Source of the DNA: Arenicellales bacterium
GTDB lineage: Bacteria > Pseudomonadota > Gammaproteobacteria > Arenicellales > CBDCFT01
Assembly (NCBI GenBank): GCA_965216365.1
Contig: CBDCFT010000015.1
Location: 185,106 to 249,105 of the forward strand
Direction: 5' to 3'
Length of the DNA stretch: 64,000 nt
Shown here: one piece after another, positions 2,886 through 45,627 of the stretch
Numbering within the stretch: the first letter of the stretch is position 1
Layout of the letters: each line of letters begins with the position of its first letter
Made by a program: the position numbers and the translations under genes
Notes under the pieces: model-generated
What the model was told of the DNA's origin: nothing
Databases searched by the model: none
Seen by the model: the letters and a program-made list of their open reading frames with translations, nothing else

Positions 2886-3374
2886 ATGGGATTTCGTTTT
2901 CTGTTTGCGCTGTTCGCGGTGATCGGTTTGATGTGGTTTTTCGGCTGGTACGGCAAAGCGTCTCCGGAGCAACGCAGTCGTTCGCTGAAAATGATCATGT
3001 TGTACGGCATTGCCAGCGCGTTGTTGCTGCTGGTGCTGACCGGCCGTATTCATTGGTTGTTCTCGGCATTCGCGCTGGTGGTGCCCATTGTGCAACGTAT
3101 CATCATGGCAAAACGTGCGTGGAACACATTTCAATCCGCTAAAGACGCATTCGGGCAACAGCACTGGAATAATACAAACTCACCGCGACGCGACGGTGCG
3201 ATGACAACGGACGAAGCCTACGACATTCTGGGCCTGCAACCTGGTGCATCGAAAGAGGAAATCATCGAAGCGCATCGCCGTTTAATGCAAAAAAATCACC
3301 CCGATCGTGGTGGCAACGATTACCTTGCCTCACGAATCAATAAGGCAAAAGATATGTTGTTGGGTGACCACTAA
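2886..3374 (+). CDS. Membrane-anchored J-domain (DnaJ-like) protein
   Basis: The N-terminus has two hydrophobic helices. The C-terminal segment TDEAYDILGLQPGASKEEIIEAHRRLMQKNHPDRGG is a canonical J domain with an HPD motif. Confidence 0.75.
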   Translation: MGFRFLFALFAVIGLMWFFGWYGKASPEQRSRSLKMIMLYGIASALLLLVLTGRIHWLFSAFALVVPIVQRIIMAKRAWNTFQSAKDAFGQQHWNNTNSPRRDGAMTTDEAYDILGLQPGASKEEIIEAHRRLMQKNHPDRGGNDYLASRINKAKDMLLGDH

Positions 3375-3456
3375 CGTGATGATTGTCATGCTGAGCGCAG
3401 CGAAGCATCCAGTCAATTCGCGTCGTGGCCAGTGATCTCACCGCGGGTCGTTTACT

Positions 3457-4311
3457 GTGGCAACGACAATGTTTTATCGCGTCGTTTTCTTAAAGCATTT
3501 AATTGAATTGCAAGTCAAAATAGCGGGCGTATTGTTGCCCGGTTTTGGCTCGTTGAATATCCGGGAAAATCACATTCCTGTGGCCAACAAAACTGGTGAT
3601 TCGATCGTACAAATCCTTCTCGGCACGGAAATTCCCGTGCGCCACACCGAAAAAAGCCCATGGTCAAACGACATACAACAATTTCTCCACTCGTGTGAGC
3701 CGGATATCATATTTTCCGTTTGTTTTCCCCACTCTATCCCTGAAAATATAAGAACTATCGCTAAAAGCGACAGCCTGAATTTTCACAGCTCGCTGTTACC
3801 CAAATACCGCGGCCCCGCGCCGGTTTTTTGGCAGTTGTATTATGGTGAAACCAATACTGGATTCAGTATTCACCGGCTTAGCGATAACATCGATGCCGGT
3901 GATATTGTTTGCCAATATCCTTTGTCGTGGCCGACAGGTGTCACCATCGATGAAATCGACAAGTTTCTAGCGTTCGAGGGAGCAAAACAATTTTGTATAC
4001 TTTTGCAAGATTTTAACCCCGGCACCGCCGCCAGCAAGGTTCAGGATGAAACGTCAGCAACGTATTTCCCAAGCCCTAGCGACAGGGATTGTATCGTTCC
4101 GACAACGTGGTCTGCGCAGCGCGCATTTAATTTTTTGCGTGGCATGGCTTGCCGCCGGGCATTGAGCATCCGCACGACTCAGGGTGATATTCCTGTTGAA
4201 CAGATTGTTGCTGTTCAGCGAGGAGAGGATCGAGCGTTCCCACCCAAACGAAATGAGATAGATATCGAATTCGATCTCAGGTGTTTTGCGTGTTCGCAGA
4301 CGGTAATATAA
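3457..4311 (+). CDS. Formyltransferase-family protein (Fmt-like)
   Basis: The HSSLLPKYRGPAPVFWQLYYGETNTGFSIHRLSDNIDAGDI segment matches the formyl-transferase catalytic core (HxSLLPxxRG ... D). The N-terminus is atypical, so the start is uncertain. Confidence 0.65.
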   Translation: MATTMFYRVVFLKHLIELQVKIAGVLLPGFGSLNIRENHIPVANKTGDSIVQILLGTEIPVRHTEKSPWSNDIQQFLHSCEPDIIFSVCFPHSIPENIRTIAKSDSLNFHSSLLPKYRGPAPVFWQLYYGETNTGFSIHRLSDNIDAGDIVCQYPLSWPTGVTIDEIDKFLAFEGAKQFCILLQDFNPGTAASKVQDETSATYFPSPSDRDCIVPTTWSAQRAFNFLRGMACRRALSIRTTQGDIPVEQIVAVQRGEDRAFPPKRNEIDIEFDLRCFACSQTVI

Positions 4312-4529
4312 TCCGTTGGAGAAATACGCTAAAATCATCGTCCGGGATAAACAACGCTGTCAATCATGTTCAAACGTAACGCCGCGCCCATGGCGCGACG
4401 CCGTAAAGCGATATTTCGGGCTGACAAGTCATCGGGTAAGGTGCGGGTCAAACTCGAGCCATCCCTCACACCGGCTAAACCTGCGCCAAAACCAACACGC
4501 GCTCGCCGCCGCACGCGTCAAGACAACCC

Positions 4530-5802
4530 GTGCGCGTGACAGGCCGGTCTCCAGTATCGACACCGCGGAAAACAAACACGGTTCACAAAACCAGGCCGGT
4601 CAAACCCTGGCGCTGGTTACTTTCATTAGCGGCGCTGACAACCAGTGTTGCGTGGCCGGTCAGTCTGAGCGGTCTTGAATACTCGCGCGAGCAAATCTGG
4701 GGTGTCAATCAGGCTCTGATTGCGCAGGCGCTGGATCAGCACGTGCGCGCCGGGTCATTGCCGACCGGTATCGAATTATCCGCTGGAAATAAATTCTACG
4801 ACGCAAAAATTCAATACAGTCTCGACTCTGAGCTGCAAGGCAAGGTACAACGTCTGTTGCGCCAATACGGCCCGGATTACGGTGCGTTTGTCGCCCTGGA
4901 GCCTGAAACCGGTCGCGTGCTCGCGATGGCGAGTTACAACCGTGCCGGCCGTGACATCGGCAACCTTGCGTTGCAAAATACGTTCCCGGCGGCGTCAGTG
5001 TTCAAGGTCGTTACCGCGGCGGCAGTAATCGATCAGGGCAAGGCCGACTACGCAACGGTGCTACCGTTTAACGGCAAGAGCTACCAGCTTGTATAAAACC
5101 AATGTATTGAAACACAAAACCACCAAGTGGACGCGCAAGCCTACGCTGCGATCAGCATTCGCTAAATCGATAAACACCGTATTCGCACGCTTAGGGATTT
5201 ATCATGTGGGCGGCGAGACGCTGCAAGAGTATGCAAGCCGGTTCGGTTTCAATAACGAAATCAACGGCGATATCCCGGTGAATTCGGGTACCACGGCGAT
5301 TGATCATGGCGACGAATGGTCGGTGGCCGAAGCGGCGTCGGGTTATACGCGCAGCAATACCATGAGTCCGTTACAAGGCGCGATGATTGCCGCGACTATC
5401 GTAAACGACGGCAAGATGGTCAAGCCCTATCTGGTTGAGTCGGTCAACAATGAAAACGGTATTTTAATGTACGCGGCGGAGCCGGAAGAAATCGATCAAG
5501 TGATCACATCGCGCACGGCATCGCAGATGCGTATCCTGATGCGCGAAACCGTCAAGAGCGGTTCAGCGCGCAAATCTTTCAGGAAGTTTTTCAAGGGTGA
5601 TATGGCCCAGGTCGATGTCGGCGGAAAAACCGGTACCTTGAACGGTTTTGAACCCAAGGGTACCTACGACTGGTTCGTCGGTTACGGCGAATTGAACGGA
5701 CGCAAAATCGCTTACGCTACCCTGTGTATCAACGTCGAAAAATGGTACGTGAAGTCGTCTAATTTTGCGCGCATGGTTTTAGAGTCGTATTTCGAAGCGT
5801 AA
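4530..5802 (+). pseudogene. Penicillin-binding-protein transpeptidase-domain gene, split by a +1 frameshift near 5089–5096
   Basis: ORF 4530–5096 carries the TM anchor and the SVFK (SxxK) motif. ORF 5089–5802 carries the SIN (SxN) and KTGT (KTG) motifs, so together they form one PBP transpeptidase domain. The frames join across the ataaaacc run. This could be a sequencing error. Confidence 0.6.
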
Positions 5803-7171
5803 CCTATAAAACTAATTTTACAAACTCGGAGTTGATCTTACAAAAATTACAGACTTTAGTTTGGAAATCGTCGGACAGCGAACGGCCGTAGTTTGCCCTA
5901 ACCAGCCAGTTCAAAATTCTTAGGCTGAATAGCAATGGATAACGATTTGCGGAAGTATTGACTAAAGGGAAAGCAGACATAACGTCATCCGAAGGGGCTT
6001 ATAAAACTTGCTCTTAACCCGCTTGTTATCGTTCAATTTATCTAGATTGGTGTAGATTCCTACCCGAGATGACGCGGAGGTTTCACGCATACGATATCGC
6101 TAAGTACTGGCAGGGTACGAAAGCCCTTATCTCTTGGATCTCACTCGCGGCACTGGGATCAGGTCTAGATGCACTCGCTCATGTGTTTCGCTCATTTTAT
6201 ATGGCAATACGTCAAAATCGATACCTACATCTTCAACAAATGACCGGGGTCGATTTTTGCACTCGACCAAGGAAACGAGCCTGTTCCCACCCAAGTCACA
6301 ATCCGTTCCTCGGATTTCATCTTTCTCTGTCAGCCGTCCACGTAAATAAAAGCCCTGAAGTAAACACCGTCGGCTCGGAGGTCGTCTGTTATCGGTGGCG
6401 CACACAAACCAGAGCCAGATTTGAATCCGGGTGCTTCCGAAAACAAAGTAGCCTTCACTTTTTTCGATCTGACGCCATGCTCTAACAGCCAGTGGTTTCG
6501 AAGTCATTAGGGACGAGTCCTGTATTAGGATCTATGTTACTGTTATGACCCTCTTCCGAAACAAAGATCATGTTTCCCCCTTGGTCAATGTATCATCATG
6601 ACCCCTTCGACGCGTCCATAGCCCACGATACAGCAGACCTTCGTAGGATCCATGGACGCGGAACAGCTCGAAGCTGATATCGGTCATTTCCACTTTTCAC
6701 TAAATCATAGTCCGACTTCGCGAGAATATGGCTAAGGTTCGACAGTCTTGATTTTTGTGTTTTCACTTTTAGTTCCTCGTGGTCTGTTCTTTCATTCAGT
6801 GACACTACGATCAATGACCGCATCGAGTATCAATTTGCCATTCAACAATATTCGATGAATGATCCTTTCTGTACGTCTGTGGTCATCTCAGGGGTTACCG
6901 TTGCTATGATTCCACGCTAGACCAAGACACGAAAGGACAATACAACCCACTTCGAATTGCTGGCTTGACTAACTCATCGTGCAAAGCCTATCTCTGGTCA
7001 TTAACTACGCCCTGAACCCGTACGTTATGGTCTGCTGTGGCTAATCGAAGCCTTGAGTCCCAAGTTGATCTTAATTCGACTCGATGCGCCAAAGCAATTG
7101 TCCGATTGACAACGTCATTAGATGTGGCAACAATGATGTTGCTTTCAAAAACCGCAAAGGAGGAGAAGAGT

Positions 7172-8309
7172 ATGACCTTAAACTGTCTAAGGTACCTTGG
7201 TGTCTCGTTTGTTGTTTTGGGTTTGCTCATATCGGTAATCGCTGCGCCCAGGACTTATGCTCAACAAAACTCCGGAAATCAAATTACTTTTACATCATGG
7301 CCGGGACCCTATATGCGCAGCCAGATGCTAGGCTTTGTGCGTCCCTACGAAGAGAAACATGGCGTCCGGGTTCATGTGGCGAGTTACAACGGTGGTATTG
7401 ATGAAATCCGCGATCAGGTCGAATCGGCGAATGTTATCTGGGATGTTGTTGACTTGACCCAGGCGGATTCATTACGCGCCTGCAACGAAGGGTTGCTGGA
7501 GAATATTGAGGATATTAATTTACCCGACGGAGCGGATGGAAGCAGTTACCGAGATGATTTCGTTGGCGGGGCACTGAATCCTTGCGGCGTTGGCGTTATC
7601 GTCTGGGCGACCGCCTTTGCCTACAGTCACAACGCTTATGAGACCGCACAGCCGACATTCAATTTCAGATTTTTTCGACACCGATAAATTCCCTGGCCCG
7701 CGTGCTATCCGCGATGACCCTACGGTAATTATGGAATGGGCGCTGATGGCTGATGGCGTCCCCCGTGAAGATGTCTATCCCACTCTTGAGACCCCCGAGG
7801 GCATCCAACGCGCGTTGGCAAAGATGGATGCGATTAAACCCGGCCTCCAGCTTTGGAGCACCGGGCGAGAACCGGTTAGGCTATTGAACACCGGCGAGTC
7901 ACCCATGGTCATGGTCTGGGCAACTACTGGCGCCGTGGCATCAAGGGAAGAAGGGGCGAATTTCTCCGTTGTATGGGATGGCCGTGTGATTGAACTCGAC
8001 CTATTCGGTATCCCAAAAGGCAGCCGGTACAAGGACGAAGCGATTGAATTCATCCAGTTCGCGAGCAGTTCCAAATCCCTGGCCGATATGGTTACCCTTT
8101 TGCCCAACGGCCCGACCCGAAAGTCCTCGTTTGCTTTCCTAACCGATGAAGTACTGGCTCAGATTCCAAATGGACCAGCTTATGATGAACAACTTTCAAT
8201 TTTGTCCGATGCTGAATGGTGGTCGAAAAACCACACCGCTTTGGAAGAAGCGTTTGATGAGTGGGCCGCAGAAGCTGGACAGAAAGGCGCTTCCGGCACC
8301 GTTCGATAA
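7172..8309 (+). pseudogene. ABC-transporter periplasmic substrate-binding protein (PotD/PotF-like family 1 SBP), frameshifted near 7660–7690
   Basis: A strong SD (aaggaggagaag) precedes ATG at 7172, followed by a signal peptide. The N-terminal half ends at 7687 in a T-rich run. The C-terminal half (...DFFDTDKFPG...) continues in another frame to 8309. The reconstructed protein is a typical SBP_bac_1. Confidence 0.6.
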
Positions 8310-8342
8310 CAAACACATTAGTGTTCGAGGTAGGATATATCA

Positions 8343-9944
8343 ATGAGTAATAAGACTATTACGCGACCAGATGATCTGGTCTCCAAATCCGGGTTATTTT
8401 CCGGAATGAACGCCATTATGGCGATCGCATCCATGGTTATGATCTTAGGGTTTGTGGCCTTTACCATTGTGGATGTCGAATATTCAGGAAAGGTCTTTGC
8501 CGCAGGGAAAGACTTCATTATCGGCACCCTGGATTGGTTCTACGTTTTGGTGGTGAACTTGGTGCTTTTTTTCGTTTTTTGGCTACTGATGAGCCGCTTC
8601 GGTGATGTGAAGCTCGGCAAAGAAGACCAAGAACCGGATTTCTCGACATTCTCGTGGATCTGCATGTTGTTTAGCGCGGGGCTGGGTTCGGGTCTGATCT
8701 ATTGGGGCGTTGCGGAGCCGATGTACCATATTCAGGATAACCCCTTCATAGCGCGTGCCGGAATCGAGGCAGGTGGTGTGGAAGCAGCTACCACCGCCAT
8801 ACGAATCACCAATTTTCATTGGGGACTGCATGGTTGGGCGCTCTATGTGCTGGTGGGTTTAAGCCTTGCCTACTTCCACTACCGAAGGGATTTGCCACTG
8901 ACGTTTCGTACCACTCTGTACCCCATCCTTAAAGAAAAAATCTATGGTCCATGGGGTCACCTGATCGATCTGATCGCTGTGTTCGGAACAATCTTTGGCC
9001 TAGCAACCTCTCTGGGTTTGGGTGTCACACCTATCGCGGCCGGTATGGAAAAGCTGGGCTGGATATCAAATACTCAAACCAACCAATTGATCCTTGTTGC
9101 AATTATTACGGCATTGGGAACAGGCTCCGCCGTCTCTGGTGTGGGCAGGGGTGTACGGATACTGAGCGAGATAAACGTTTGGGCGAGCCTCGGGTTGCTT
9201 TTGCTTTTCCTGGTTTTGGGACCAACCGCCTTTATTCTTGGTATGACGATCACCGGCGCTGGCGACTATCTTTGGAATGTTATCCCCATGGGTTTCTGGA
9301 TTGACGGCGATCCTGAGCGCCAATGGCAGAGCTGGTGGACAATCTTCTATTGGGGTTGGTGGATAGCGTGGTGTCCGTTTGTTGGTTTGTTTATCGCCCG
9401 CGTTTCCAAGGGTCGTACGATCCGTCAGTTCTGCTTGTGTGTGCTTCTCGTCCCGGTTTCGGTAGTTATTCTGTGGATGGGAATATTCGGCAGTGCCGCC
9501 ACCGGCGTCGACCTCTTCTACAATGCAGGTGTGGTCGATGCGGTCAATGCGGATTATGCGTCGGGAGTATTCCAAACGATTGCGGGTTTTGGTTACGACT
9601 CCTTGGTCACGCCGATTACCATACTGGTCACCCTTTTACTGGTGTCATGGTTCGTCACATCGTCGGATTCGGGTACGCTGGTAATGTGTACGATGCTCTC
9701 CATGGGTGATGAGCATCCACCGATCAAGTTCCGTCTTTTCTGGGGTATCACCGCCGGCGTTGTTGCCGGTGTACTCATGCTGGCGGGCGGTTTGACAGCA
9801 CTTCAGACGGCATCAATTGTAGCGGGCCTGCCGATTGCGGTGATCTTGCTATTTATGGGCTATGGGATGGTGAAAACGTTGTATGAAGACTTCCCCGCAC
9901 CCGATGTCGAAGACAAGCGGGAGCTGGAGTACTTGAATCGTTAA
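8343..9944 (+). CDS. BCCT-family transporter (betaine/carnitine/choline)
   Basis: 533 aa with 12 TM helices and the BCCT signature WTIFYWGWWIAWCPFVGLFIARVSKGRTIRQF. Confidence 0.9.
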   Translation: MSNKTITRPDDLVSKSGLFSGMNAIMAIASMVMILGFVAFTIVDVEYSGKVFAAGKDFIIGTLDWFYVLVVNLVLFFVFWLLMSRFGDVKLGKEDQEPDFSTFSWICMLFSAGLGSGLIYWGVAEPMYHIQDNPFIARAGIEAGGVEAATTAIRITNFHWGLHGWALYVLVGLSLAYFHYRRDLPLTFRTTLYPILKEKIYGPWGHLIDLIAVFGTIFGLATSLGLGVTPIAAGMEKLGWISNTQTNQLILVAIITALGTGSAVSGVGRGVRILSEINVWASLGLLLLFLVLGPTAFILGMTITGAGDYLWNVIPMGFWIDGDPERQWQSWWTIFYWGWWIAWCPFVGLFIARVSKGRTIRQFCLCVLLVPVSVVILWMGIFGSAATGVDLFYNAGVVDAVNADYASGVFQTIAGFGYDSLVTPITILVTLLLVSWFVTSSDSGTLVMCTMLSMGDEHPPIKFRLFWGITAGVVAGVLMLAGGLTALQTASIVAGLPIAVILLFMGYGMVKTLYEDFPAPDVEDKRELEYLNR

Positions 9945-10299
9945 TATCGGTTATCTGTCACCTTTCAACTTCACATTGTGGGTGGAAAAATCCGCCCCAA
10001 AAGTCTATGGGGTAAATCCGTGGGACCGGACCGATTTTGGCGCGCCCTGCGGCACGCAGTTCATCCAGCCGCTTTACGGTAGTGCCCTCGAGCCTGGCTG
10101 TGCGTCGCCCGAAGGCGCGAATGATCTGCCTTCGTCAAGAAGTGACATCAGAAGTTGAAACGTGTGAGTTCTCTCCCTAAAAACACGCTCGAACTTACTA
10201 TAAAGAGTATACATGCGCCTAATGCACATCATATTCTTTGATATCGTTGGATAGGCTGCGTCTTCTTCTCGACTTGACGCTGCGGCTGATGCGTGACGG

Positions 10300-10893
10300 T
10301 GCACCGTGGGGACGCGCAACCGGCTTTCGAAGGGATCAAGAGCATCTTGGTGCCGACCGACAGTATCGAACCAAGCAGACAAGGCGGTGAACTCGCGAGC
10401 GACATGTTGCGCTAAATATGGTGCGAAGCTGGTACTCCTGTACGTAATGTGGCGCGGTCCGTCGCTCGAATTCTCCGTGTCTCGGTCGACCTGGATCAAC
10501 CATGCGAGAGTGCCCGTGATGAACTGGACCCGGTGCAACACCCGATCGCCGACATGTTAGTAGCACCTTCTACCGCCGATTGTGTCGAAGGACGCGTCCA
10601 AGGAAATCGGCGAACAAGTTCTCGCACGCGGGGGCGACAAACCGCATGAGGCAAAAGGCGTTTGGACTCCGAAACTAGTGCTGCTGGACGGAGACCCGGC
10701 GCGCGCAATTGTCGGGACCACCCGGCGTGAGCAAGCGGACTTGATTGCATGGGCAGTGGCGGTCTCGGGGGAGTTGAAGGACTACTCACAGGCAGCGTAT
10801 CGTACAATGTGTCGCACGGTTCCCTGCAGTTGCATGATCGTTTACTGACGCCACGGGTGCGCCCGAGCGGACCCTTCTTGGGAAACCTAGCCC
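10300..10893 (+). repeat. Copy A of a ~600-bp direct repeat unit; a degenerate universal-stress-protein (UspA-family) gene
   Basis: Aligns with 11428–12068 at high identity with indels. The frames encode ...ILVPTD..NQADKAV..AKYGAKLVLLYV... and ...LLDGDPARAIVGTTRREQADLIAWAV..., which are the USP N- and C-terminal motifs, interrupted by frameshifts. Confidence 0.6.
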
Positions 10894-11119
10894 GGATATT
10901 GCATGAGTAGTGCCGAGTGTCAGGAGGAAAAGGCCTTGTTATGCAGGTTGAGTCGTTGAAAGACCTATCAGTATTTTCAGAATAGAGGTGTGAATTGGCA
11001 TTTGTTCCACTGCAATGTGATCGATTTTCAGGGGTGAATCGAGCATTTTCTTTGTCCCAGGGCGAGCGATGTCCTGGCGTGATGCATCACGCCGTTGAAA
11101 TGGACCGATAACGGTCGAC

Positions 11120-11425
11120 TTATCCGGGTGCGAGTCGGTGGGCGACGAGGAAGAATAAATGCTGATAGGGATAACGACTCGATAACAGAAAACGGACACG
11201 GCGGGTATTGCGCAGGATCACTGCACTGATCTTGAGCAGTTTCAATCGTAATGTGCCGCATAGGCGCGGGCCAGTTCGGTGCCCTTGAGTGCCAACCGTC
11301 GAATGGCCTCCAACAAGGTGTAGGCCATCGAGGAGAGCGTAAGCGAAACTGGTTCGGCCACACGGTGAACCACTGGTGCGATCGGCAAACATATCCAGTT
11401 GTTGCTCCTTGATCCGGTTCTCCAT
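11120..11425 (-). other. Possible IS5/IS1182-like transposase N-terminal remnant between the two USP repeat copies
   Basis: The minus-strand frame MENRIKEQQLDMFADRT... resembles the QxxLFxD start of the InsH-type N-terminal domain, but the rest is not conserved. Weak evidence. Confidence 0.2.
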
Positions 11426-11427
11426 GT

Positions 11428-12068
11428 CACCACGGGACGCGCAACCGGCTTTCGAAGGGATCAAGAGCATCTTGGTGCCGACCGACGGTTCGAACCAAGC
11501 AGACAAGGCGGTCGAACTCGCGAGCAGCGACATTGCCGCTAAATATGGGGCGAAGCTGGTACTCCTGTACGTAATGTGGCGCGGCCCGTCGCTCGAAGCG
11601 CTCCGTGCATTCGGTCGACCTGGACCCCAACTCAGCGAGAGTGCCCGTGATGAACTGGACCCGGTGCAACACCCGATCGCCGAGCATGTTAGTAGCACCT
11701 TCATACCGCCGATTGTCTCGAAGGACGCGTCCAAGGAAATCGGCGAACAAGTTCTCGCACGCGGGCGACAAACCGCAGAGGCAAAAGCACTAAACGTTCG
11801 GCGCGCGGACTCCGAAACTGGTGCTGCTGGACGGAGACCCGGCGCGCGCAATTGTCGGGACCGCCCGGCGTGAGCAAGCGGACTTGATCGCAAATGGGCA
11901 GTACCCCAGCGGTCTATACCCGGGGGAGTTGAAGGACTACTCACAGGCAGCGTCACCGCTTCGTACAACCCGGTGAGTCACCACGGTTCCCTGCCTCAGC
12001 CTGCATGATCGTTCGCTGACGCCACGGGTGCGCCCGAGCGGACTTCGCCTTCTTGGGAAACCTAGCCC
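11428..12068 (+). repeat. Copy B of the ~600-bp repeat unit; a degenerate UspA-family gene
   Basis: ...FEGIKSILVPTDGSNQADKAVELASSDIAAKYGAKLVLLYV... then a frameshift, then ...GDPARAIVGTARREQADLI... Same unit as copy A. Confidence 0.6.
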
Positions 12069-12631
12069 ATCTCTGTGATCCAACGTGCCATAAAGAGTTG
12101 AATTACGCCACCATACGCGCGGAAGGCCGTGTCAAATTATCGATTATGCGGCAAGCGGCAGCTGGACCAACCCACCCGCCGCGCTAATAAAACTCCACAG
12201 GTTCTTCACATGCCCAGTGTTCGGACTCGCTCTGTTTAAATCGAACTCGAACGGCGGCTTGAAGTTCTAATCCGCCTCGTTTTGAAATCGGCCAATAGTC
12301 CGCTTGGAGTATTCTACAGTCTACGCTTACTTGTTGCCCGAAAAGGATAATTGGTGGAAGTAATGATTAAATGCTTTCTTGTCCGTAGTCACTTGATTCT
12401 TACGAAATAAAAGACGTAGCCCGAATCCAATAAGAATAGTACCAGTCAAACTTAAGACTTTTATCCCGCTCGCAGTGTTAGGAAATTGGGTTGTTGAATA
12501 GAGTTATCTGTCTATCGTTGTAAAAATAGCTCAAGATTTGTTACGTCACAGAAAATTGGTTTCTTTATGATGCTGTCAACACAAAACAGCTCAAAAAATT
12601 GTTACAACGATGATGAGGCTGCCCAATATCA

Positions 12632-14245
12632 CTAAGCGTAGCGCTTAAATTCCAGCGTCCCGTCGCGCTCCATTTGTTCCACTAACGCCACTTCCCAATC
12701 CAGGTAGTCCTGCATGCGTTTTCGCGCGGCGTCGGGATGATCGTAGGGCTTGTACCAGACATCGTCCGCATCGGGATTAACGTCGGTATCGCCGGCGTCC
12801 TTAAAACCGCTGTCCCAGGCAAATCCCGCGTCCAGCCACGCATTGTTACCGCCTGCCAGAACACGCACTAATTGATTCGGTCGCAGCTCGGCAATATCCT
12901 TGGCTGCGTAACGGGCCAAGGTTCCGTCAGGCGATGTGATGACCAACAACCCGGCAGGTGGCATCAAAGTAAGTGTTGCATCGAGATCCGGACGCGTGAC
13001 CCACTGTGCGTCTGGAATATGAGCTTTGCGAAACGTCAGACTGTCGGCGAAATCGAGTACACGCACCGACTCGCCCGAATCCAGCGCGGCTTTGAGTTCG
13101 GATGCACTTAAGGTTTCTGCTTGCGCATCGCTTAGCAAGGGTGGCTGGTAATGTTCGGTCGTAAGGTCTTGTCCTTCGAACGCATCCTGCAAAACATAAA
13201 CCTCGGGCCAACTCATTTGTATTAACCAGGACGCGGTCATGGTGGCACGCACCAGCGTGTCGTCAATTAACACGACCGTCGCGTTTCGTACCGCCATGTA
13301 TTCATCCGTCGCCTGCACAAGCTGCCCGCCGGGCGCGGAACGCGAACCGGGTAAGTGCGACGCAGCGAATTCCTCCAGTGAACGCACGTCAAGTAGATAG
13401 ACGGTTTTATCTGCGTAGCGATTTAACGCATCCAGTTCTTCGTGACCGATATAACGCACGCCAAAACGCGCGGCGACATTTCTCGCGCGTTGTTGTGCAT
13501 GATCTAAACCTTTGGACGATGGATTTGGTGCACATTCCTGTGCGCCACGATCCACATCGAACCCTGCGAGTTGCCAACCCATCGTGCCATCTTTCAAAGC
13601 CATCACTCGGTTAGGAATACCGGCGTTTATCAATGATTGGGAACCGATAATACTGCGCGTGCGGCCTGCGCAATTAACCACGACATCAGTTTTCGGATTG
13701 GGCGCAAGATCATGCACACGGTAAACCAGTTCTGCACCCGGCGTGCTGACGCCGCCCGGAATACTCATGCGATGATATTCACTGAACGGTCGGCTGTCTA
13801 AGATCACGAAGTCATCACCCGACGCCTGCCGCGCATGCAAGTCATCGGCAGTGATATGCGGTGTGTCATAGTTGATCTCGACGAACTCGCCAAAAGCCTT
13901 GCTCGGCACGTTGATGCCGCTAAACAATTCAAAGCCCGCATTTTTCCAGCCATCAATTCCGCCGTCGAGGATTGAAACATCGGTATAACCAAAACCTGCA
14001 AGCCGTTCCACTGCGCGCCGTGCAAGATTCTCTTTGCCTGATGGTCCGGCATCGCACAATACAACGGTGGTGTTTTTGCGCGGTACTGATTCCGCGAAAC
14101 GCAATTCAAGGCGGCTGAAGGGAATGCAGGTAGCAAGCAGTAAATGACTTTTAGCGAACACACCTTGCTCGCGCACATCGATTAACGCTATTTCGGCAGG
14201 TTCGCGTAGTTTTTGTTTTAGTTCTGCTGGGGAAACAAATTTCAT
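12632..14245 (-). CDS. Multi-domain rhodanese-family sulfurtransferase
   Basis: 537 aa with several rhodanese-like modules, including an active-site Cys loop CAGRTRS. It lies in an operon with the CDO-family gene at 14257–14850. Confidence 0.8.
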   Translation of the reverse strand: MKFVSPAELKQKLREPAEIALIDVREQGVFAKSHLLLATCIPFSRLELRFAESVPRKNTTVVLCDAGPSGKENLARRAVERLAGFGYTDVSILDGGIDGWKNAGFELFSGINVPSKAFGEFVEINYDTPHITADDLHARQASGDDFVILDSRPFSEYHRMSIPGGVSTPGAELVYRVHDLAPNPKTDVVVNCAGRTRSIIGSQSLINAGIPNRVMALKDGTMGWQLAGFDVDRGAQECAPNPSSKGLDHAQQRARNVAARFGVRYIGHEELDALNRYADKTVYLLDVRSLEEFAASHLPGSRSAPGGQLVQATDEYMAVRNATVVLIDDTLVRATMTASWLIQMSWPEVYVLQDAFEGQDLTTEHYQPPLLSDAQAETLSASELKAALDSGESVRVLDFADSLTFRKAHIPDAQWVTRPDLDATLTLMPPAGLLVITSPDGTLARYAAKDIAELRPNQLVRVLAGGNNAWLDAGFAWDSGFKDAGDTDVNPDADDVWYKPYDHPDAARKRMQDYLDWEVALVEQMERDGTLEFKRYA

Positions 14246-17087: not shown

Positions 17088-20000
17088 CTAATGAAAATCA
17101 CGTGAACGTACACGCAAAGTGCTAAGCCATGCACTGTAATCATCCAGTTTTCTGGCGACGACATGAATAACATTACTTTCAATTTGAACAGCGCCATTCA
17201 CAACCAGCAAGCGGGCATTGATCAGGTTACGCCGTTGCGCCTCAACAATTTTAGGCCAGACGACAATGTTGGCGTGTCCGGTTTCGTCTTCCAGCGTAAC
17301 AAAAATGACACCGGATGCCGTCATGGGTCGTTGGCGGTTGATGACCAGCCCGGCAACACTGGCCACGCAACCATTAGATAAATGCTCTAATTCACACGCC
17401 GGATGAATGCCTATGTCGTTCAGGCGTTTGCGATACAATGCGACGGGATGACGGCCCAGGGTCAGACCGATGCTGGCATAGTCGGCGATGATATTTTCTT
17501 CTTCCTGCGGTTTGTACAACATGGCTTCGCCCTCGTTGAACTGCGGTGAGGGCAAAATTTTTGTAGCGGACTCTGCGCCGGATACTTCCCAATATGCCTT
17601 ATGGCGATGATCGGCGATGTTAACCAATGCGTTGGCCGCGGCCAGTGCCTCTAAATCCGTTTTATTGAGTCGCGCCCTTTGGGCCAGATCCTGCACGTTA
17701 CGATAACGGCCATCATGTCGTTGATACACGATGTTTTCACCACTGGTCTGCGATAGACCCTTAATCATACGCAAGCCTAAACGCAGGGCAGGTTGTCTGG
17801 TGCGTGATGGTTCAAGGGTGCAGTGCCAATGACTGATTTGCACATCTACAGGTCGTATCTCGACACCATGCTGGCGTGCATCGTTGACTAATTGTGGAGG
17901 ACGATAAAATCCCATGGGCTGACTATTCAATAACGCGCAGGTAAACGCCGCAGGTTCATAATATTTTAACCACGACGAGATATACGCCAGCAAGGCAAAA
18001 CTGGCGGAATGGGACTCAGGGAAACCGTACTCACCAAAACCTTTGATTTGCCGGTAGATACGCTCAGCAAATTCCAATGGATAACCATTAGCTGTCATTC
18101 CATTGATTAATTTTTCCTCATAGGGTCCCAGATCGCCTCGACTCTGCCACGCTGCCATGCTGCGCCGCAACTGGTCGGCTTCACCGGGTGAAAATCCTGC
18201 CGCAACGATGGCAATTTGCATTACCTGTTCTTGAAAAATAGGCACACCCAATGTGCGTTGTAAAATCTGCTCGACCGCATCGCTGGGATAATCGACAGGC
18301 TCTATTTTGTCCCGGCGTCGCAGATAAGGGTGCACCATGTCACCTTGTATAGGCCCGGGACGAACAATCGCAATTTGAATAACAAGATCATAGTAATTTT
18401 TCGGTCTAAACCGCGGCAACATGGACATTTGCGCCCGCGACTCGATTTGAAAAACGCCAACGGTGTCCGCTTTTTGCATCATGGCATAAACCTTCGTGTC
18501 TTTTTTAGGAATACTTTCCATGCTCCAGCGTTTACCACTGTAACCTTCGATCAGATCAAAACACTTGCGGATCGCAGTCAACATACCGAGGCTCAGCACA
18601 TCGACCTTAAGCAGTCCTAAGGATTCGAGATCGTTCTTTTCCCATTGTATGACTGTGCGATCCGGCATGGCCGCGTTTTCGATGGGGGCTAACTCGGACA
18701 GGTTGCCTTGCGTAATGACGAAGCCACCTACATGTTGCGAAAGATGACGAGGAAAATGAAAGATTTCACCAACCAGGGTAAACAGTTTTCCAATTTTGGG
18801 GTTTTTGTGGTCAAAACCGTTTTCTTCTAATTGCGATATGAGTTGTTGTGTACTGTCCCACCATTGTATGGACTTCGACAAACGGTCAACCTGCTCCAGG
18901 CTAAATCCCAATGCTTTACCCACGTCACGAATCGCGCTGCGCAATTTATAAGTAACTACGGTGGCAGCTAGCGCTGTGCGTTCACGTCCGTAACGTCGGT
19001 AAATATATTGAATGACTTCTTCACGTCGTTCATGTTCAAAATCGACGTCGATGTCAGGTGGCTCGTCGCGTTCTCTGGAGATAAATCTCTCGAACAACAA
19101 TTCCACCATTGATGGATTAACCTCGGTAATGCCAAGGCAATAACACACTGCTGAATTTGCAGCCGATCCACGCCCCTGACATAAGATATTCTGGCTACGA
19201 GCAAATCGAACTACATCGTAAATGGTTAAGAAATAGGGTTCATATTTCAGCTCAGTAATGAGCTTGAGTTCATGTTCGATTTGTTTTTTAATCTTGTCGC
19301 TTGCACCATCCGGCCAGCGTCGTTGCATGCCTTGTTCAGTTAATCGCCGGAGCCATGATGCGGGAGTGTATCCGGACGGAACGATCTCCCTGGGATATTC
19401 ATAACGCAGTTCATCCAAATTGAAATTGCACAGCGATGCAATATACACACTTTGTTCCAGCAACTCAGGTGAATAGAGTTTTGACAACCGTTGCCGGGAC
19501 TTTAGATAACGTTCGCCGTTGGGAAACAGATCAAAACCGAGTTCATTGAGTGGTTTGTTAAGACGGATAGCGGTGAGCGTATCCTGCAACGCACGCCGCC
19601 CCGGATGATGCAGATGTACACTGCCACAGGCAACGCGGGGCAGGTTGCATGCCGTGCTTAATTTTTCGGTGTGTTCTAAATAATTTTTTTCATTGCCGAG
19701 CAACAAACGGGTTACTGCAATCCAAACATGTTGTGGAAACAGTCTGGCAAGCCATACGCCATCCTCAATTTGTGAACTCTCATTAACCAGCCAGAGTACA
19801 ATGCACCCTTCAGGGCACAGAGCCTCGAATTCCATACGGTTTAATTTATAAGTCCCTTTATCGGCATTACGCCGTGCATGGGTAATCAAACGCGACAGAC
19901 GGCCATAACTTCCCCGATCGGTGGTTAACACAACACAACGCAATCCGTCTGCTAACGTGAACTCGCTACCGACGATTAACTTGATGCCGCATGCTTTAGC

Positions 20001-20171
20001 CGCTACATGCGCCCGCACCACACCGGACAACGAACATTCATCGGTGATAGCGATGGCGCAATAACCGAACTCGTGCGCCTGTTTGACTAACTCTTCGGGA
20101 TGGGAGGCGCCGCGTAAAAAAGTAAAGTTGCTGATGACATGCAACTCGGCATAGTCAGGCAAACAGTCCAT
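17088..20171 (-). CDS. dnaE2: Error-prone DNA polymerase III alpha-like (DnaE2/ImuC)
   Basis: 1027 aa with a PHP domain at the N-terminus (HVISNFTFLRGAS...) and a Pol III alpha core. It is the last gene of the imuA-imuB-dnaE2 cassette. Confidence 0.9.
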   Translation of the reverse strand: MDCLPDYAELHVISNFTFLRGASHPEELVKQAHEFGYCAIAITDECSLSGVVRAHVAAKACGIKLIVGSEFTLADGLRCVVLTTDRGSYGRLSRLITHARRNADKGTYKLNRMEFEALCPEGCIVLWLVNESSQIEDGVWLARLFPQHVWIAVTRLLLGNEKNYLEHTEKLSTACNLPRVACGSVHLHHPGRRALQDTLTAIRLNKPLNELGFDLFPNGERYLKSRQRLSKLYSPELLEQSVYIASLCNFNLDELRYEYPREIVPSGYTPASWLRRLTEQGMQRRWPDGASDKIKKQIEHELKLITELKYEPYFLTIYDVVRFARSQNILCQGRGSAANSAVCYCLGITEVNPSMVELLFERFISRERDEPPDIDVDFEHERREEVIQYIYRRYGRERTALAATVVTYKLRSAIRDVGKALGFSLEQVDRLSKSIQWWDSTQQLISQLEENGFDHKNPKIGKLFTLVGEIFHFPRHLSQHVGGFVITQGNLSELAPIENAAMPDRTVIQWEKNDLESLGLLKVDVLSLGMLTAIRKCFDLIEGYSGKRWSMESIPKKDTKVYAMMQKADTVGVFQIESRAQMSMLPRFRPKNYYDLVIQIAIVRPGPIQGDMVHPYLRRRDKIEPVDYPSDAVEQILQRTLGVPIFQEQVMQIAIVAAGFSPGEADQLRRSMAAWQSRGDLGPYEEKLINGMTANGYPLEFAERIYRQIKGFGEYGFPESHSASFALLAYISSWLKYYEPAAFTCALLNSQPMGFYRPPQLVNDARQHGVEIRPVDVQISHWHCTLEPSRTRQPALRLGLRMIKGLSQTSGENIVYQRHDGRYRNVQDLAQRARLNKTDLEALAAANALVNIADHRHKAYWEVSGAESATKILPSPQFNEGEAMLYKPQEEENIIADYASIGLTLGRHPVALYRKRLNDIGIHPACELEHLSNGCVASVAGLVINRQRPMTASGVIFVTLEDETGHANIVVWPKIVEAQRRNLINARLLVVNGAVQIESNVIHVVARKLDDYSAWLSTLRVRSRDFH

Positions 20172-21672
20172 GTAAATACCACTCCCGGCCCTGTTTCAGA
20201 TCTCGGTAAACCCACCAGCGTACCCCCTTTTTTGATATAGCAACGTAGTAATCGCGCCCGATATCATCATCGTCCCACCAGCCGTTTTCGATACGCTCGG
20301 ACTGGGTTATAAATTTCGTTCCATTCAACACAACAGGCAGTGCCTGCGGCAGTAGATAAACGGGTCTGCGCAGATTTTTTATCCATGCCAGCGTGTCGCT
20401 ATTATCATGGATTTTACCAATGCAACAACGCTGCCAGGCATGTTCAGGCCGGTGGTCGGCCGCCGTTTGCATGCAATACACTTTGTCATCGCCAACACGA
20501 GCTTTGATCAGATCCGTCAGTTGTTGCCAGTCCTGTTCGTCACTCGCGCGTTTGTCGAACAAGTCGGCATGGGATGCGGCATAAGGCAATACCTGATCGA
20601 TATGCAGCGATACACGTTCGACCTCATCCGGTAAGGTTAAATGTTCAAGTCGTTCGTTAATAAGCGTTAAAAACCGTTGTGATTGCCGCGAGGCTTTTTG
20701 TAACCGAATGGGTAAGGGCGTGTGAGTCTTGTGGTCATGCCAGAACTTGATGAGCAGGGCATCGGTCATGGCATCGTGCCGGCGCAAAAAGTTTTCTGCC
20801 TTACCCAGCAACTTCTCAAGCGCGATCATTAATAAGTCAACGCTGTCACTGTGCACCGGCAGTTCCAGTTCGGCGTTAAAACGCACACTGGGCATAAAGA
20901 CACGGCGTAAATCGGGTTGCATGGCGCTGGCATGATCCAAAAATGTCAACAGGGACACGCCAAAACGTCGCGTCAAACCCGCACGCGGTAAACGCCATAA
21001 ATCACGCAAAGTGTATAACCCGCATTTCGATAAACTCTCGACCAGCTTGGTCGAAAGCCCGGTATCGACCAGTGCTATTTCGCCTAATGCAGATTTCAAA
21101 CCGGCTTTATCGGTTATATTTTTTTCCATGCCGTTATGCGCCAACAGCCATGCTGACGTGGGTGTGGGAGTCACTGCTAGAAAAAAGGTTTGTTTATGTT
21201 TTGTAAACATGTCGCGTACATGACTCCGCAGTTTTTTCATGCCGCCGAATAATTTAAGACTGCCGGATACTTCCATTAACAACGCATCGGATTCCTGCAG
21301 AGCGATATGGGGTGTAAAACGAGCTGCTTGCCGGGCCAGTTGTTCCAGTTTTTTACGTTCAAACGCGACATCGCGCATACACACCTTGAGATGGCGGCAC
21401 AATGCATAAGCAGCATTCAATGGCATGCCCGGCGTGATGCCCCGGGACTGCGCAATGCCGCAGGCAGCATAAATCACATGGCGATTTTTTTGTTGCTCGA
21501 TAATCGCGCAAGGCATGTCTTGCTCACGCGCCGGGGTTTGCAAAGCCAGTTCAGGAAAACAGATGCACAACCAGAGGTGTTGGCTGGTGGATAAATTTTC
21601 AGCGACCGGTTCGGCGAAAGACTCAAACGCTGCCGGCGTAATTTTTGGTGCGATGTTTAAGCTGGCATTCAT
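20155..21672 (-). CDS. imuB: Y-family polymerase-like ImuB
   Basis: 505 aa sitting between imuA and dnaE2, overlapping the dnaE2 start. It has UmuC/DinB-like N-terminal similarity. Confidence 0.75.
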   Translation of the reverse strand: MNASLNIAPKITPAAFESFAEPVAENLSTSQHLWLCICFPELALQTPAREQDMPCAIIEQQKNRHVIYAACGIAQSRGITPGMPLNAAYALCRHLKVCMRDVAFERKKLEQLARQAARFTPHIALQESDALLMEVSGSLKLFGGMKKLRSHVRDMFTKHKQTFFLAVTPTPTSAWLLAHNGMEKNITDKAGLKSALGEIALVDTGLSTKLVESLSKCGLYTLRDLWRLPRAGLTRRFGVSLLTFLDHASAMQPDLRRVFMPSVRFNAELELPVHSDSVDLLMIALEKLLGKAENFLRRHDAMTDALLIKFWHDHKTHTPLPIRLQKASRQSQRFLTLINERLEHLTLPDEVERVSLHIDQVLPYAASHADLFDKRASDEQDWQQLTDLIKARVGDDKVYCMQTAADHRPEHAWQRCCIGKIHDNSDTLAWIKNLRRPVYLLPQALPVVLNGTKFITQSERIENGWWDDDDIGRDYYVAISKKGVRWWVYRDLKQGREWYLHGLFA

Positions 21673-21676
21673 TGCA

Positions 21677-22294
21677 TTAAATATCCAATATCACCGACTG
21701 TTGTTGCCAACTGCCACGTGCTTTAATTATTTTTATGTTTAAACCTCGCTGGTGGGCGCGAAGATGCAAACGCAAAGGTGCGGGCGAACCAGTACAATGT
21801 TGACGATGAAACAACACGCCGATGCTGTCACCGGCGCTGGCCGCGAGTTGCAAACGGCGTATGCCGCGCGGATCGGCTTGTGGCAGCCACACCAGCACCA
21901 TGGCGCTGGTCTGGGCGCGCAGGGTTTTGTCCGCGCTCCACCAGATGTCCCGTGCACTCGCCGCCGCATCGATAATGAGTAAACGATTCAGTCGAACACC
22001 GGCATTGATCAGGGCCGGTGCATAGGGCACATAAGGCGGTGCGATGATGCTCAACCATTTATCCTGTTGACTGAGGCGGGCCATGAGCGGCAACCACAGT
22101 TGTAACTCGCCGATGCCCCAGTCATGCAGCATGTTTTCGACGACAGTGCTATTCGGCCAGCCACCACCCGGCAGCAAGGCGTCCAGTGCCGCAAAACCAC
22201 TGCTGATATTCTCGCTGCACTGTTCAAGACGCGCCGCACCCTGCCATAGCAGCGGATTACTGCTGATCAAGTCATCCAGCGATGGATTCATCAT
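21677..22294 (-). CDS. imuA: SOS cell-division-inhibitor-like ImuA
   Basis: 205 aa RecA/SulA-like fold protein (ALDALLPGGGWP...). It is the first gene of the cassette and sits directly downstream of a LexA box. Confidence 0.7.
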   Translation of the reverse strand: MMNPSLDDLISSNPLLWQGAARLEQCSENISSGFAALDALLPGGGWPNSTVVENMLHDWGIGELQLWLPLMARLSQQDKWLSIIAPPYVPYAPALINAGVRLNRLLIIDAAASARDIWWSADKTLRAQTSAMVLVWLPQADPRGIRRLQLAASAGDSIGVLFHRQHCTGSPAPLRLHLRAHQRGLNIKIIKARGSWQQQSVILDI

Positions 22295-28181: not shown

Positions 28182-29957
28182 ATGGAAAAACTCACGGACT
28201 TTAAACCAATCCATAAACTTACACTTCCCGACTTAGGGGAACTAACTTGTTCCGGTCTTACCATCATAGTTGGCCCAAATTCGCCAGGTAAGAGCCAACT
28301 ACTTAAAGACATCAACGAAAAAATAGCTGGCGACCCGCGAGAGTTAGTTGTCGCTGAATCAATTGAGTTGACAAATATCGATTACACAACTTTCTTAAAG
28401 TGCTTAATAACCGAGGGATATTTATCTTCTTTCTGGGACGATAATGATCAAGAGCAGTATATGCCGATGACTACTGCTATAGGTACCGGTCAAGGCGCTC
28501 AACAGGTGGGAACTCAACAACTTGAACAATGGAAAAGTCAGTCTCCAACAGCACATAAACGCAAAAAGAAAGATCAATACTTTGGATGGTTCAGCCGTTT
28601 CCTTGTAACCGCACTATTCTTAGAAAATCGACTCACAAGTATGTCTACCGCAAACACAATAGACTTTGAAACACAGCCTCCTACACACGATTTACATGCC
28701 TTGCACTTACACGACGAGGCTAGAAACGCCCTCACGGAAGAAATACAGCGAGCATTTTCAAAAGCTATTTGGTCCGACATATCTAAAGGTAATCAAATCT
28801 GTCTACGGATCGCTGAAACAGGAAAAGTTCCAAGTGCCGAAGACCGCCTTTCCGTTAAAGAAATGGCGAAGTACAGAACGTTAGCTTCCGAAGGCGATGG
28901 AATGAAATCTTATGTGGCTACCGTCATTTCGCTTCTACTCGGAAGACGCCCGATAAGTGTAATGGACGAACCGGAAATGTGTTTGCATCCACCGCAGGCT
29001 TACAACCTCGGACAATTTATAGGAAAGTCTGCGACTAGCAAGCAAACAAGAACTTTCGTCGCCACGCACAGTAGCCAAATTTTACGCGGCGTCTTACAAA
29101 CGGCTGAAGAGCTTCAAATAGTTCGATTAACAAGAAATCCAACTGGTTTTTCCGCAAAACATGTAGATTCAAAACTGTTAAATGAAGCGTTAAGAAAACC
29201 GACAGTACGAGCTGAAACTGTGCTTGATGGTATATTTGCTCAAGCTGTAGCAGTAGTTGAGGCGGATGGTGATCGGATCGTATATCAGGCAACGTGGGAA
29301 GTCGTTGGACAATCGCGTAATTTCGATATTCATTTTGCGACTACGGGTGGGACAGGCGGGATTTCCGATACATGCAAATTGTACAAAATGTTGGGCATTC
29401 CCGTAGCAGTGATCGCGGATTTAGATCTGATAACTGACTTAGGAAAAATCAAGGTGATCTTGCAGAGCTTAATCGATGACGCTGAAATAGTTGATGAGCT
29501 TGTGAGTACAGGTCATGAATTAGCCGATAAATTACAAAAACTTCCCCCAACTATTTCGGAAGCAGACCTCCACGATAGACTCAAGGAACTAGTACAGGAG
29601 AACTTTATTTGGGTTCAAGGAGATGATCATAAACTCAGACGTGAACTTTCGGGTCTAAGTAACAAACTAAACGGAATGCGGGGATTAAAAGGTGGCGGAC
29701 TTTCCGTACTTCCACTAGATGTTTCAAAACCATTGCTAGAATTGCTAGAGAAATTTCAACGTATCGGGCTATTCTTAGTACCCGTTGGAGAACTTGAATA
29801 TTGGCTACAGGATCATAGTATATCCGCCTCAAAAAAGAAAAAATGGGCCTGGGCTAATGAAGCAGCAGAATTTATAAGAATGAATCAACGACAACAGAAT
29901 GATATCTGGAAATTCATGGAAGATGTGGGAGCCTATTTAACAGGGCAATTCGTTTGA
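28182..29957 (+). CDS. OLD-family ATP-dependent endonuclease-like protein (ABC-type ATPase + TOPRIM)
   Basis: 591 aa. Walker A GPNSPGKSQLL, signature-like GMKS, Walker B ISVMDEPE and H-loop ATHSS. The C-terminal TOPRIM-like region has VAVVEADGDRIVY (E, DxD) and VAVIADLDLITD. The gene is low-GC relative to its flanks. Confidence 0.7.
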   Translation: MEKLTDFKPIHKLTLPDLGELTCSGLTIIVGPNSPGKSQLLKDINEKIAGDPRELVVAESIELTNIDYTTFLKCLITEGYLSSFWDDNDQEQYMPMTTAIGTGQGAQQVGTQQLEQWKSQSPTAHKRKKKDQYFGWFSRFLVTALFLENRLTSMSTANTIDFETQPPTHDLHALHLHDEARNALTEEIQRAFSKAIWSDISKGNQICLRIAETGKVPSAEDRLSVKEMAKYRTLASEGDGMKSYVATVISLLLGRRPISVMDEPEMCLHPPQAYNLGQFIGKSATSKQTRTFVATHSSQILRGVLQTAEELQIVRLTRNPTGFSAKHVDSKLLNEALRKPTVRAETVLDGIFAQAVAVVEADGDRIVYQATWEVVGQSRNFDIHFATTGGTGGISDTCKLYKMLGIPVAVIADLDLITDLGKIKVILQSLIDDAEIVDELVSTGHELADKLQKLPPTISEADLHDRLKELVQENFIWVQGDDHKLRRELSGLSNKLNGMRGLKGGGLSVLPLDVSKPLLELLEKFQRIGLFLVPVGELEYWLQDHSISASKKKKWAWANEAAEFIRMNQRQQNDIWKFMEDVGAYLTGQFV

Positions 29958-45255: not shown

Positions 45256-45627
45256 TTAGAGCGAACCATCCGCATCATGGACTTCGTGCCCAGTAAGTGC
45301 CGGATAAAAAGTACAAATCAATCGCATCTGCGTCTTAGCTCTGATTCGGTGTCGATCATGATTATTCATCGCATAAAGTGTACCTGGCCTTATCTCGTGT
45401 ACTGTCCCTGAATCCACTTCCTCAACGGTTCCCTCACCTTCCAAGCAATAACAGGCTTCCAAATGATTCTTTTGCCATAACTGCATCTCAAATCCAGCCT
45501 CTAGAATCGAATCGGTTAAAGTGACCTGCATGCCATCTTCTTCATGGAGTAACCGAAAACTATGCCAGCGTTCTCCACTTGAATCACCTTTTGTACCAAC
45601 GATGTCGTCTTTTGTTCTAATAATCAT
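45256..45627 (-). CDS. Ectoine-synthase-like cupin (EctC family), orphan
   Basis: 123 aa with ...EACYCLEGEGTVEEVDSGTVHEIRPGTLYAMNNHDRHRIRAKTQMRLICTFYPALTGHEVHDADGS, collinear with EctC. No ectAB nearby. Confidence 0.75.
   Translation of the reverse strand: MIIRTKDDIVGTKGDSSGERWHSFRLLHEEDGMQVTLTDSILEAGFEMQLWQKNHLEACYCLEGEGTVEEVDSGTVHEIRPGTLYAMNNHDRHRIRAKTQMRLICTFYPALTGHEVHDADGSL

Follow-up and report, generated by a model that had tools for sequence, protein, structure and literature searches.

A putative rearrangement scar of a universal-stress-protein domain and an IS1380-family remnant in an Arenicellales bacterium

We asked how a 2.7-kb tract without an intact gene could have arisen in a 64,000-nucleotide (nt) stretch of Arenicellales bacterium contig CBDCFT010000015.1, all of which was analyzed and which we call the window. 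An earlier description made from the letters alone (the sequence-only reading) held that this tract, positions 9945 to 12631 of the window, carries two tandem degenerate copies of a universal stress protein (USP) gene separated by a possible insertion sequence (IS) remnant. The observation was confirmed, and the interpretation attached to it, an IS-mediated duplication followed by decay, was partly supported. We put the probability at roughly 0.6 that the tract is a nonfunctional rearrangement scar lying in a 6.8-kb lineage-specific insertion (5817 to 12631).

The tract is bordered by a BCCT transporter gene (8343 to 9944) and a convergent gene with four rhodanese domains (12632 to 14245). Between the two stop codons (9944 and 12632) there was no intact gene, and we found only short overlapping open reading frames (ORFs) on both strands, in agreement with the gene-poor character first noted. 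From left to right the tract contains the following.

9945 to 9999, plus strand: native 3' flank of the BCCT transporter gene, the end of a conserved solute-binding-protein and BCCT cassette
10000 to 10287, no strand given: 288-nt segment between the BCCT cassette and the usp fragment, no assignment
10288 to 10893, plus strand: USP copy A, a putative pseudogene of the C-terminal USP domain, placed by homology to intact genes in loci L086, L085, L081, L082, and L012
10886 to 11433, minus strand: putative IS1380-family remnant, placed by Pfam, blastn, tblastn, and its inverted repeat
11434 to 12068, plus strand: USP copy B, the same domain from codon 6, stop at 12017 to 12019, placed by alignments and polarized changes
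12069 to 12270, plus strand: native 3' flank of the usp gene, unduplicated and continuous with copy B, collinear with L086
12271 to 12631, no strand given: AT-rich segment (~40% GC), the right end of the 6.8-kb insertion, placed by composition, repeats, and the boundary with L087

Copy A and copy B share a direct repeat (10309 to 10893, 585 nt, and 11434 to 12068, 635 nt) that has 30 mismatches in ~580 aligned columns, an identity of ~95% that is far beyond chance. A repeat finder returned 13 gap-free families, and 11 of them were blocks of this repeat. Many insertions and deletions (indels) separate the copies, so that their start-to-start spacing widens over the length of the repeat, from 1124 to 1175 nt; ~21 small indels distinguish one copy from the other. 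Three-frame translation of both copies gave USP-like peptides spread across three reading frames. The two tandem degenerate USP copies of the sequence-only reading were thus borne out.

The single-frame USP pieces scored 13.7 to 15.6 bits against the Pfam USP profile (PF00582), under its cutoff of 24. As had been suggested with the original observation, corrected frames were searched. We assembled a translation manually, taking most of it from copy B and one C-terminal piece from copy A, and this translation matched the full profile (positions 2 to 141 of 141; E = 2e-25; 90.4 bits). Its intact homologues were 66 to 76% identical, and most were 301 to 343 amino acids (aa) long with two USP domains, the second of which aligned with the repeat from the inter-domain linker on (residues ~117 onward). 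One metagenome contig (L086) has an intact 343-aa two-domain usp gene, beside a pheA-like gene, with DNA 82 to 85% identical to both copies. Single-domain relatives of 185 aa starting MTVNR... exist as well. By these alignments the repeat unit is less than a whole usp gene, corresponding to the C-terminal domain alone of a USP with two domains. A tblastn search with five two-domain homologues did not find the first, N-terminal USP domain anywhere in the window, and the Smith-Waterman score of positions 9945 to 10292 against the N-terminal USP domain and upstream region of L086 was no better than that of shuffled sequence. The UspA content of both copies and its disruption by frameshifts, as originally described, therefore stood; the reading of each copy as a usp gene was incomplete, with the C-terminal domain alone being present.

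No intact ORF in the tract encodes a USP domain. The longest in-frame piece is 149 to 165 aa and ends in the wrong frame, and no polypeptide of the tract carries two PF00582 domains. The ATP-binding motif of the UspFG/MJ0577 class is G-x2-G-x9-G-(S/T). In copy A, the form G-x2-G-x9-G-S is readable as GSGGLGGVEGLLTGS, in a frame that does not connect with the remainder of the gene, and in copy B, the motif is broken up by ACCCC and ATACC insertions. The full-profile match and the level of identity are shared with the two-domain ATP-binding USPs of this class, and the motif readable in copy A may be a further likeness, but the tract differs in holding the second domain only, twice, with 10 to 11 indels per copy, as would be expected of relics rather than working members. 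The 149-aa ORF of copy B starts at a fortuitous ATG at 11421, inside the IS, and is 100% identical to a publicly called 149-aa ORF, P0010. This "USP" ORF is chimeric, made of antisense sequence from the IS and a frameshifted piece of the usp gene, and the ORFs of the spacer are not genes.

The spacer between the copies contains the minus-strand frame MENRIKEQQLDMFAD, which reads down from ~11425 and had been likened to the start of an IS5 or IS1182 transposase. The proposal of an IS remnant was upheld, since the frame matched Pfam DDE_Tnp_1_4 (PF13701) at positions 328 to 431 of 435 (E = 1.5e-17; 63 bits, cutoff 34.7) and a terminal inverted repeat is present at 10887. Neither the family nor the start proved correct. 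A Pfam scan of both minus-strand frames returned PF13701 as the single transposase family, and we rejected the IS5/IS1182 assignment because PF13701 is the profile carried by annotated IS1380 transposases and the annotated plasmid matches are IS1380. The frame aligned to internal residues ~333 to 347 of two 433- to 434-aa IS1380 transposases, with which the window aligned only at residues ~328 to 433; the catalytic core, upstream of the matched profile positions, is absent. The search of the spacer for its IS identity, also suggested at the outset, gave the same family by blastn, with matches to the ISPa33 and ISMaq4 transposase genes, and 16 of the 17 plasmid matches under the spacer were annotated IS1380-family transposases, the 17th lying under no listed gene. 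The protein identity of the spacer is ~50% with ISPa33-type proteins and 92% with P0074, a 143-aa relative on a 180-kb contig. With P0074 and the two IS1380 transposases, tblastn matched the fragment in three frames; the three-frame reading against P0074 therefore indicates three 1-nt deletions in the fragment.

The transposase remnant comprises the last ~105 codons (11123 to 11437), followed by a 3' untranslated region of ~235 nt and the terminal inverted repeat CTAGCCCGGATATTGCATGAG. The outer end of this repeat is at 10887, the C at 10886 being ambiguous, its first 7 to 8 nt overlap the USP repeat unit, and it aligns with the ends of four IS relatives (L089, L090, L083, and L084). No second copy of the inverted repeat was present in the window with up to 3 mismatches allowed, and no left IS end was found there. 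We conclude that the spacer is probably the 3' quarter of an IS1380-family element (10886/7 to 11433, minus strand). The C-terminal DDE_Tnp_1_4 region is like that of the ISPa33-like and ISMaq4-like members of the family, and the terminal inverted repeat CTAGCCCGGAT...CATGAG is shared with relatives. Unlike them, the remnant holds 548 nt of a ~1.7-kb element, is missing three-quarters of the transposase and one inverted repeat, and has a coding part with three 1-nt deletions, so that it cannot transpose.

The best 120 database matches of a protein search with the IS fragment were all short ORFs of 101 to 189 aa, and in L090 an IS1380 transposase gene (3161 to 4480) is split into ORFs of 88, 89, and 159 aa. 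Copies of this IS1380 subgroup that are broken or truncated abound in metagenome assemblies, reflecting either real decay or an assembly effect at repeats.

We compared the surroundings of the tract with a related genome (L087/L088), in which ThyA is 96% identical in protein and ~80% identical in DNA and the gene order on both sides is the same. Only 10 nt separate a PBP-type transpeptidase gene from the rhodanese gene in L087, and in L088 too the pair is adjacent, whereas in the window 6.8 kb (5817 to 12631) lies between them. By this comparison, the segment is a lineage-specific insertion in the 10-nt spacer of the two convergent genes. It consists of 1.3 kb without identification, the solute-binding-protein and BCCT cassette, the 288-nt segment, the usp/IS scar, and the AT-rich 360-nt end. 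We found no convincing terminal inverted repeats and no integrase for the insertion.

Compared with the intact genes in L086, L085, L081, L082, and L012, the homology of copy A starts at 10290, and the L086 alignment reaches 10288. The frame equivalent of copy A runs from 10293 (GTG, MTVHRGD...) to a TGA at 10846 to 10848, after which there are 37 to 45 nt of native 3' flank. On the 5' side, only copy A extends beyond the repeat, by 19 to 21 nt that belong to the inter-domain linker (CVTVH). On the 3' side, only copy B goes on past the repeat, into ~200 nt of native flank (12069 to 12270), as in L086; over 190 nt of it (12071 to 12260), identity with the sequence downstream of the L086 usp gene is ~83%, and the alignment has a single 2-nt gap. 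Past a ~13-nt segment specific to L086, another 23 nt match exactly and extend the homology to ~12270. The end of copy B is native sequence, with ...GGGAAACCTAGCCC followed by ATCTC here and GGGGAACCTAACCC followed by ACCTC at the L086 counterpart, and the 7- to 8-nt sequence CTAGCCC is alike in the IS terminus and the native flank, where L086 has CTAACCC.

The order of parts is unrelated DNA, copy A, the IS end to about codon 330, copy B from codon 6, and the native usp 3' flank. Setting aside native joints and the true end of the IS, one joint is left, at 11433/11434, from IS codon ~330 to usp codon 6. This single novel joint is accounted for because a tandem duplication running from usp codon 6 to IS codon ~330 predicts such a joint. 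The arrangement has the marks of a tandem duplication (head-to-tail copies, one novel joint, and native sequence on both outer sides), with the complication that the second unit is without its IS part. The duplication and decay proposed in the sequence-only reading therefore stood. The "IS-mediated" part did not; the joint of copy B lies within the transposase gene and so was not made by the transposase but by an illegitimate (microhomology) event.

The alignments establish the identities of the parts, their boundaries, the polarity of changes, and the island context; from them we infer the following order and mechanism of events. An ancestor would have had a two-domain USP gene of ~340 aa, and an IS1380-family element would have come to lie ~40 nt 3' of the usp stop in the opposite orientation, with its right-hand inverted repeat beside the gene. 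A tandem duplication would have followed, its unit beginning at codon 6 of the second USP domain and ending near codon 330 of the transposase gene, and would have yielded the joint at 11433/11434 and, with it, the order copy A, IS 3' fragment, copy B. The full IS expected past copy B would have been lost, possibly by recombination across CTAGCCC. Alternatively, one replication event with two template switches, at CTAGCCC and at a short CACC..G similarity at 11433, may have produced the same arrangement. The first USP domain would have been lost separately, with a breakpoint near 10288. Both copies, with no intact frame, first domain, or native promoter, would have undergone neutral decay and would have no function.

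ISEcp1 is the best-studied IS1380-family member, one-ended mobilization of flanking DNA is its established behavior, and "transposition unit" is the term used in the literature. The IS1380 element could have acted in this way, with its left end and a surrogate right end moving the IS and ~600 nt of usp (10290 to 10885) as one unit, copy B and its flank being a separate piece or the resident gene. Copy A exactly abuts the right-hand inverted repeat of the IS, its other end (10288 to 10290) is an abrupt mid-gene breakpoint with unrelated DNA beyond, and the region lies within a mosaic 6.8-kb insertion, all of which would suit such a unit. However, the start of copy B at a position interior to the IS is left unexplained, as is its uninterrupted native flank, so that a second capture or extra deletions would be needed. 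Moreover, no left inverted repeat was found in the window, so that there is no pair of flanks in which the short (4- to 5-bp) target-site duplication of the family could show, and by eye positions 10288 to 10310 resemble an IS end only weakly. We consider this account very improbable.

Two further arrangements were tried and set aside. Insertion of the IS at a preexisting A/B joint followed by an internal deletion is less parsimonious, in that the deletion must end exactly at the start of copy B. We also rejected a short-range transposition in which the IS and usp moved as one unit back into the same usp gene, since a complete IS left end should then adjoin copy B and another IS should follow that copy; neither was seen.

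We polarized the indels and substitutions against the outgroups L086, L085, L081, L082, and L012 and obtained a separate spectrum for each part.

Copy A: 4 insertions (1 to 2 nt), 6 deletions (1 to 2 nt), 21 derived substitutions
Copy B: 11 insertions (1 to 13 nt, 44 nt in total), 0 deletions, at most 6 derived substitutions
IS fragment: 0 insertions, 3 deletions (1 nt), ~4 amino acid changes versus P0074

All 10 indels of copy A and 8 of the 11 insertions of copy B are non-multiples of 3 nt. The substitutions of copy A are mostly GC-to-AT (16 of 21) and are distributed 6:6:9 across codon positions, a pattern as expected for neutral decay. Because these changes are even over codon positions, we also rejected a recent duplication, still intact, in which copy A would be under purifying selection. 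Several of the copy B substitutions adjoin insertions and may be alignment artifacts.

Several observations weigh against a scar that formed and then decayed as a whole. The copies do not look co-aged: the ratio of insertions to deletions is 11:0 in copy B and 4:9 in copy A plus the IS fragment (Fisher p = 6e-4), and there are 21 substitutions in copy A, or at least 21 with the IS fragment, versus at most 6 in copy B (binomial p = 0.006). Relative to substitutions, indels are ~24 times as frequent in the duplicated part as in the adjacent unduplicated flank in the comparison with L086 (p = 3e-5), and both copies translate stop-free once the indels are removed. The bases inserted in copy B are C- and A-rich, about half of them are not tandem copies of their neighbors, and its 13-nt insertion has no template elsewhere in the window. 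Biology and consensus errors in a repeat that is hard to polish would account for these indel features about equally well. The event model itself needs three events, or else an IS that came to lie by coincidence beside a 7-nt copy of its own terminus. Finally, the sequence is known from one assembly, with P0010 on a single contig; an exact protein look-up of the BCCT protein, the rhodanese protein, P0010, and P0074 gave at most one contig each and no independent assembly of the sequence.

A badly assembled repeat had been offered from the start as the alternative to a real duplication. A simple collapse or expansion artifact is unlikely because the copies differ in flanks, junctions, and mutation spectra. 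A narrower version is that the A-IS-B architecture is real and many or all of the frameshifting indels, the insertions of copy B foremost, are consensus errors from noisy long reads or poor polishing at two 95%-identical copies and a multicopy IS. Copy B, and perhaps copy A, could then be an intact single-domain USP gene, a form known from the 185-aa relatives. The indels are confined to the repeated sequences (10290 to 12068), with the single gap of the unique flank (12069 to 12260) as noted above, and copy B has insertions only and almost no mismatches. The indel-free copies lack stop codons, corrected copy B reads as a well-conserved USP domain, and the IS fragment differs from P0074 mainly by its 1-nt deletions. 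All of these would fit consensus errors. The rest of the window argues otherwise, however, in that its long genes are intact (1027, 591, 585, 537, and 533 aa) and the ~9.5 kb in common with L087 shows indels that are not multiples of 3 nt in the PBP gene only. Consensus errors of common platforms do not typically take the form of insertions of 5, 5, 6, and 13 nt outside homopolymers, and the opposite indel spectra of A and B are unlike a single error process. Likewise, the copy A substitutions have the natural GC-to-AT bias and absence of codon-position bias of a genuine pseudogene, and +1 insertions at non-homopolymer sites also occur in the unique PBP and solute-binding-protein genes. Taking both sides together, we regard errors of this kind as a tentative and somewhat doubtful explanation.

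If the indels are real, they might instead reflect a local mutational process on the duplicated segment that is insertion-biased and in which substitutions are rare. A candidate process is error-prone repair or break-induced synthesis adding short, partly untemplated, C/A-rich insertions to one copy, and an ImuA-ImuB-DnaE2 mutasome encoded 5 kb away could participate in such mutagenesis. We hold this to be most improbable. If true, it would be repeat-associated, insertion-biased mutagenesis, which is not described in bacteria.

In returning to the rearrangement scar, we compared it with decay in the eroding genomes of Burkholderia leaf-nodule symbionts, where tandem duplications at microhomology and multi-indel decay are found (PMC6054270). 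The likeness lies in a head-to-tail duplicate with one novel joint at short microhomology, in decay mostly by small indels, and in IS elements and other pseudogenes nearby. The difference is that copy B of the tract has insertions only (11:0) and few substitutions and that the spectra of the copies differ significantly. Across 151 pseudogenes of the reductive Burkholderia genomes, 396 deletions and 300 insertions were counted, which is nearly balanced (PMC6054270). An insertion-only copy with almost no substitutions is not expected, and an insertion-only spectrum such as that of copy B is not described as a normal pattern. The tract is an ordinary genomic scar of known kinds, its sole oddity being the excess of small indels, a spectrum that would come either from a problem in the local assembly or from a minor peculiarity of mutation.

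The biological weight of the tract is small; it would show an IS1380-family element and a microhomology-joined duplication scrambling a stress gene in a strain-specific islet. The tract is a good test spot for the quality of the source assembly. The 7- to 8-nt identity of the IS terminus and the native flank gives a small lead on target choice or excision by IS1380-family elements.

The remaining parts of the tract and of the insertion are described here. Homology by blastn with L024 ("Marine bacterium B5-7") spans 7106 to 9999 and ends there, and a terminator-like hairpin lies at 9995 to 10012. The solute-binding-protein and BCCT cassette is 83% identical in this bacterium and ~70% identical in many alphaproteobacteria. 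In Pseudohalocynthiibacter aestuariivivens (L012), a 65%-identical USP homologue (11758 to 12320) lies directly downstream of the BCCT orthologue on the opposite strand; the BCCT and USP genes are therefore neighbors in at least one other genome. For positions 10000 to 10287, the ORFs had no Pfam match and no meaningful match to the ORFs of 90 related loci, and for this segment together with 12271 to 12631, tblastn with ~11,000 ORFs from related loci and Pfam searches of the ORFs gave noise only. ORF, Rfam, and tRNA searches of 12271 to 12631 gave no match. This AT-rich end contains short direct repeats (AAAAYAGCTCAA...TTGTTAC, spacing of 60 to 70 nt) at 12480 to 12611 and a 14-nt inverted repeat (12514 to 12527 and 12598 to 12611). 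A promoter and terminator scan of the tract gave counts not above those of shuffled sequence, and no structured RNAs or tRNAs were found in the tract, the sole match in the window being a tRNA-Lys at 33041.

Other genes of the window are also broken. The PBP-type transpeptidase gene (4366 to 5802, plus strand) is in three frames here and is a single 477-aa ORF in L087; one T has been inserted (+1) at 5082, where there is no homopolymer, and 4501 to 4541 contains three small indels, the protein sequence being otherwise 76 to 89% conserved. Directly upstream of the BCCT gene lies the solute-binding-protein gene (7106 to 8309, plus strand), which a +1 insertion at 7657 splits and which has also lost 9 nt in frame at 7274; in L024 it is intact (403 aa). 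The LysE-family translocator (38925 to 39739, minus strand) is in at least three frame pieces with a middle ~100 to 120 nt longer than expected and is a further pseudogene, with a net insertion. An IS256-family (Transposase_mut) transposase (48668 to 49894, minus strand) is intact at 408 aa (Pfam E = 6e-115), which adds a second IS family to the window. The broken genes and the intact IS256 transposase show that IS activity and the formation of pseudogenes are ongoing in this genome.

Three other loci were recorded in the window. A cassette for an ImuA-like protein, a Y-family-like ImuB, and the error-prone polymerase DnaE2 lies at 17088 to 22294 on the minus strand, at a distance of ~5 kb from the tract with its many indels. 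The match of DnaE2 to NF004225 scores 1470 bits, and there is no evidence of a connection between the cassette and the tract. An ectoine synthase (EctC) gene (45256 to 45627, minus strand) appears alone, with no adjacent ectA or ectB and with gene-poor gaps of 600 to 700 nt around it. The 591-aa protein encoded at 28182 to 29957 on the plus strand combines an AAA_21/AAA_15 ATPase with an OLD-like TOPRIM domain, the makeup of an OLD-family nuclease, a class associated with antiphage defense.

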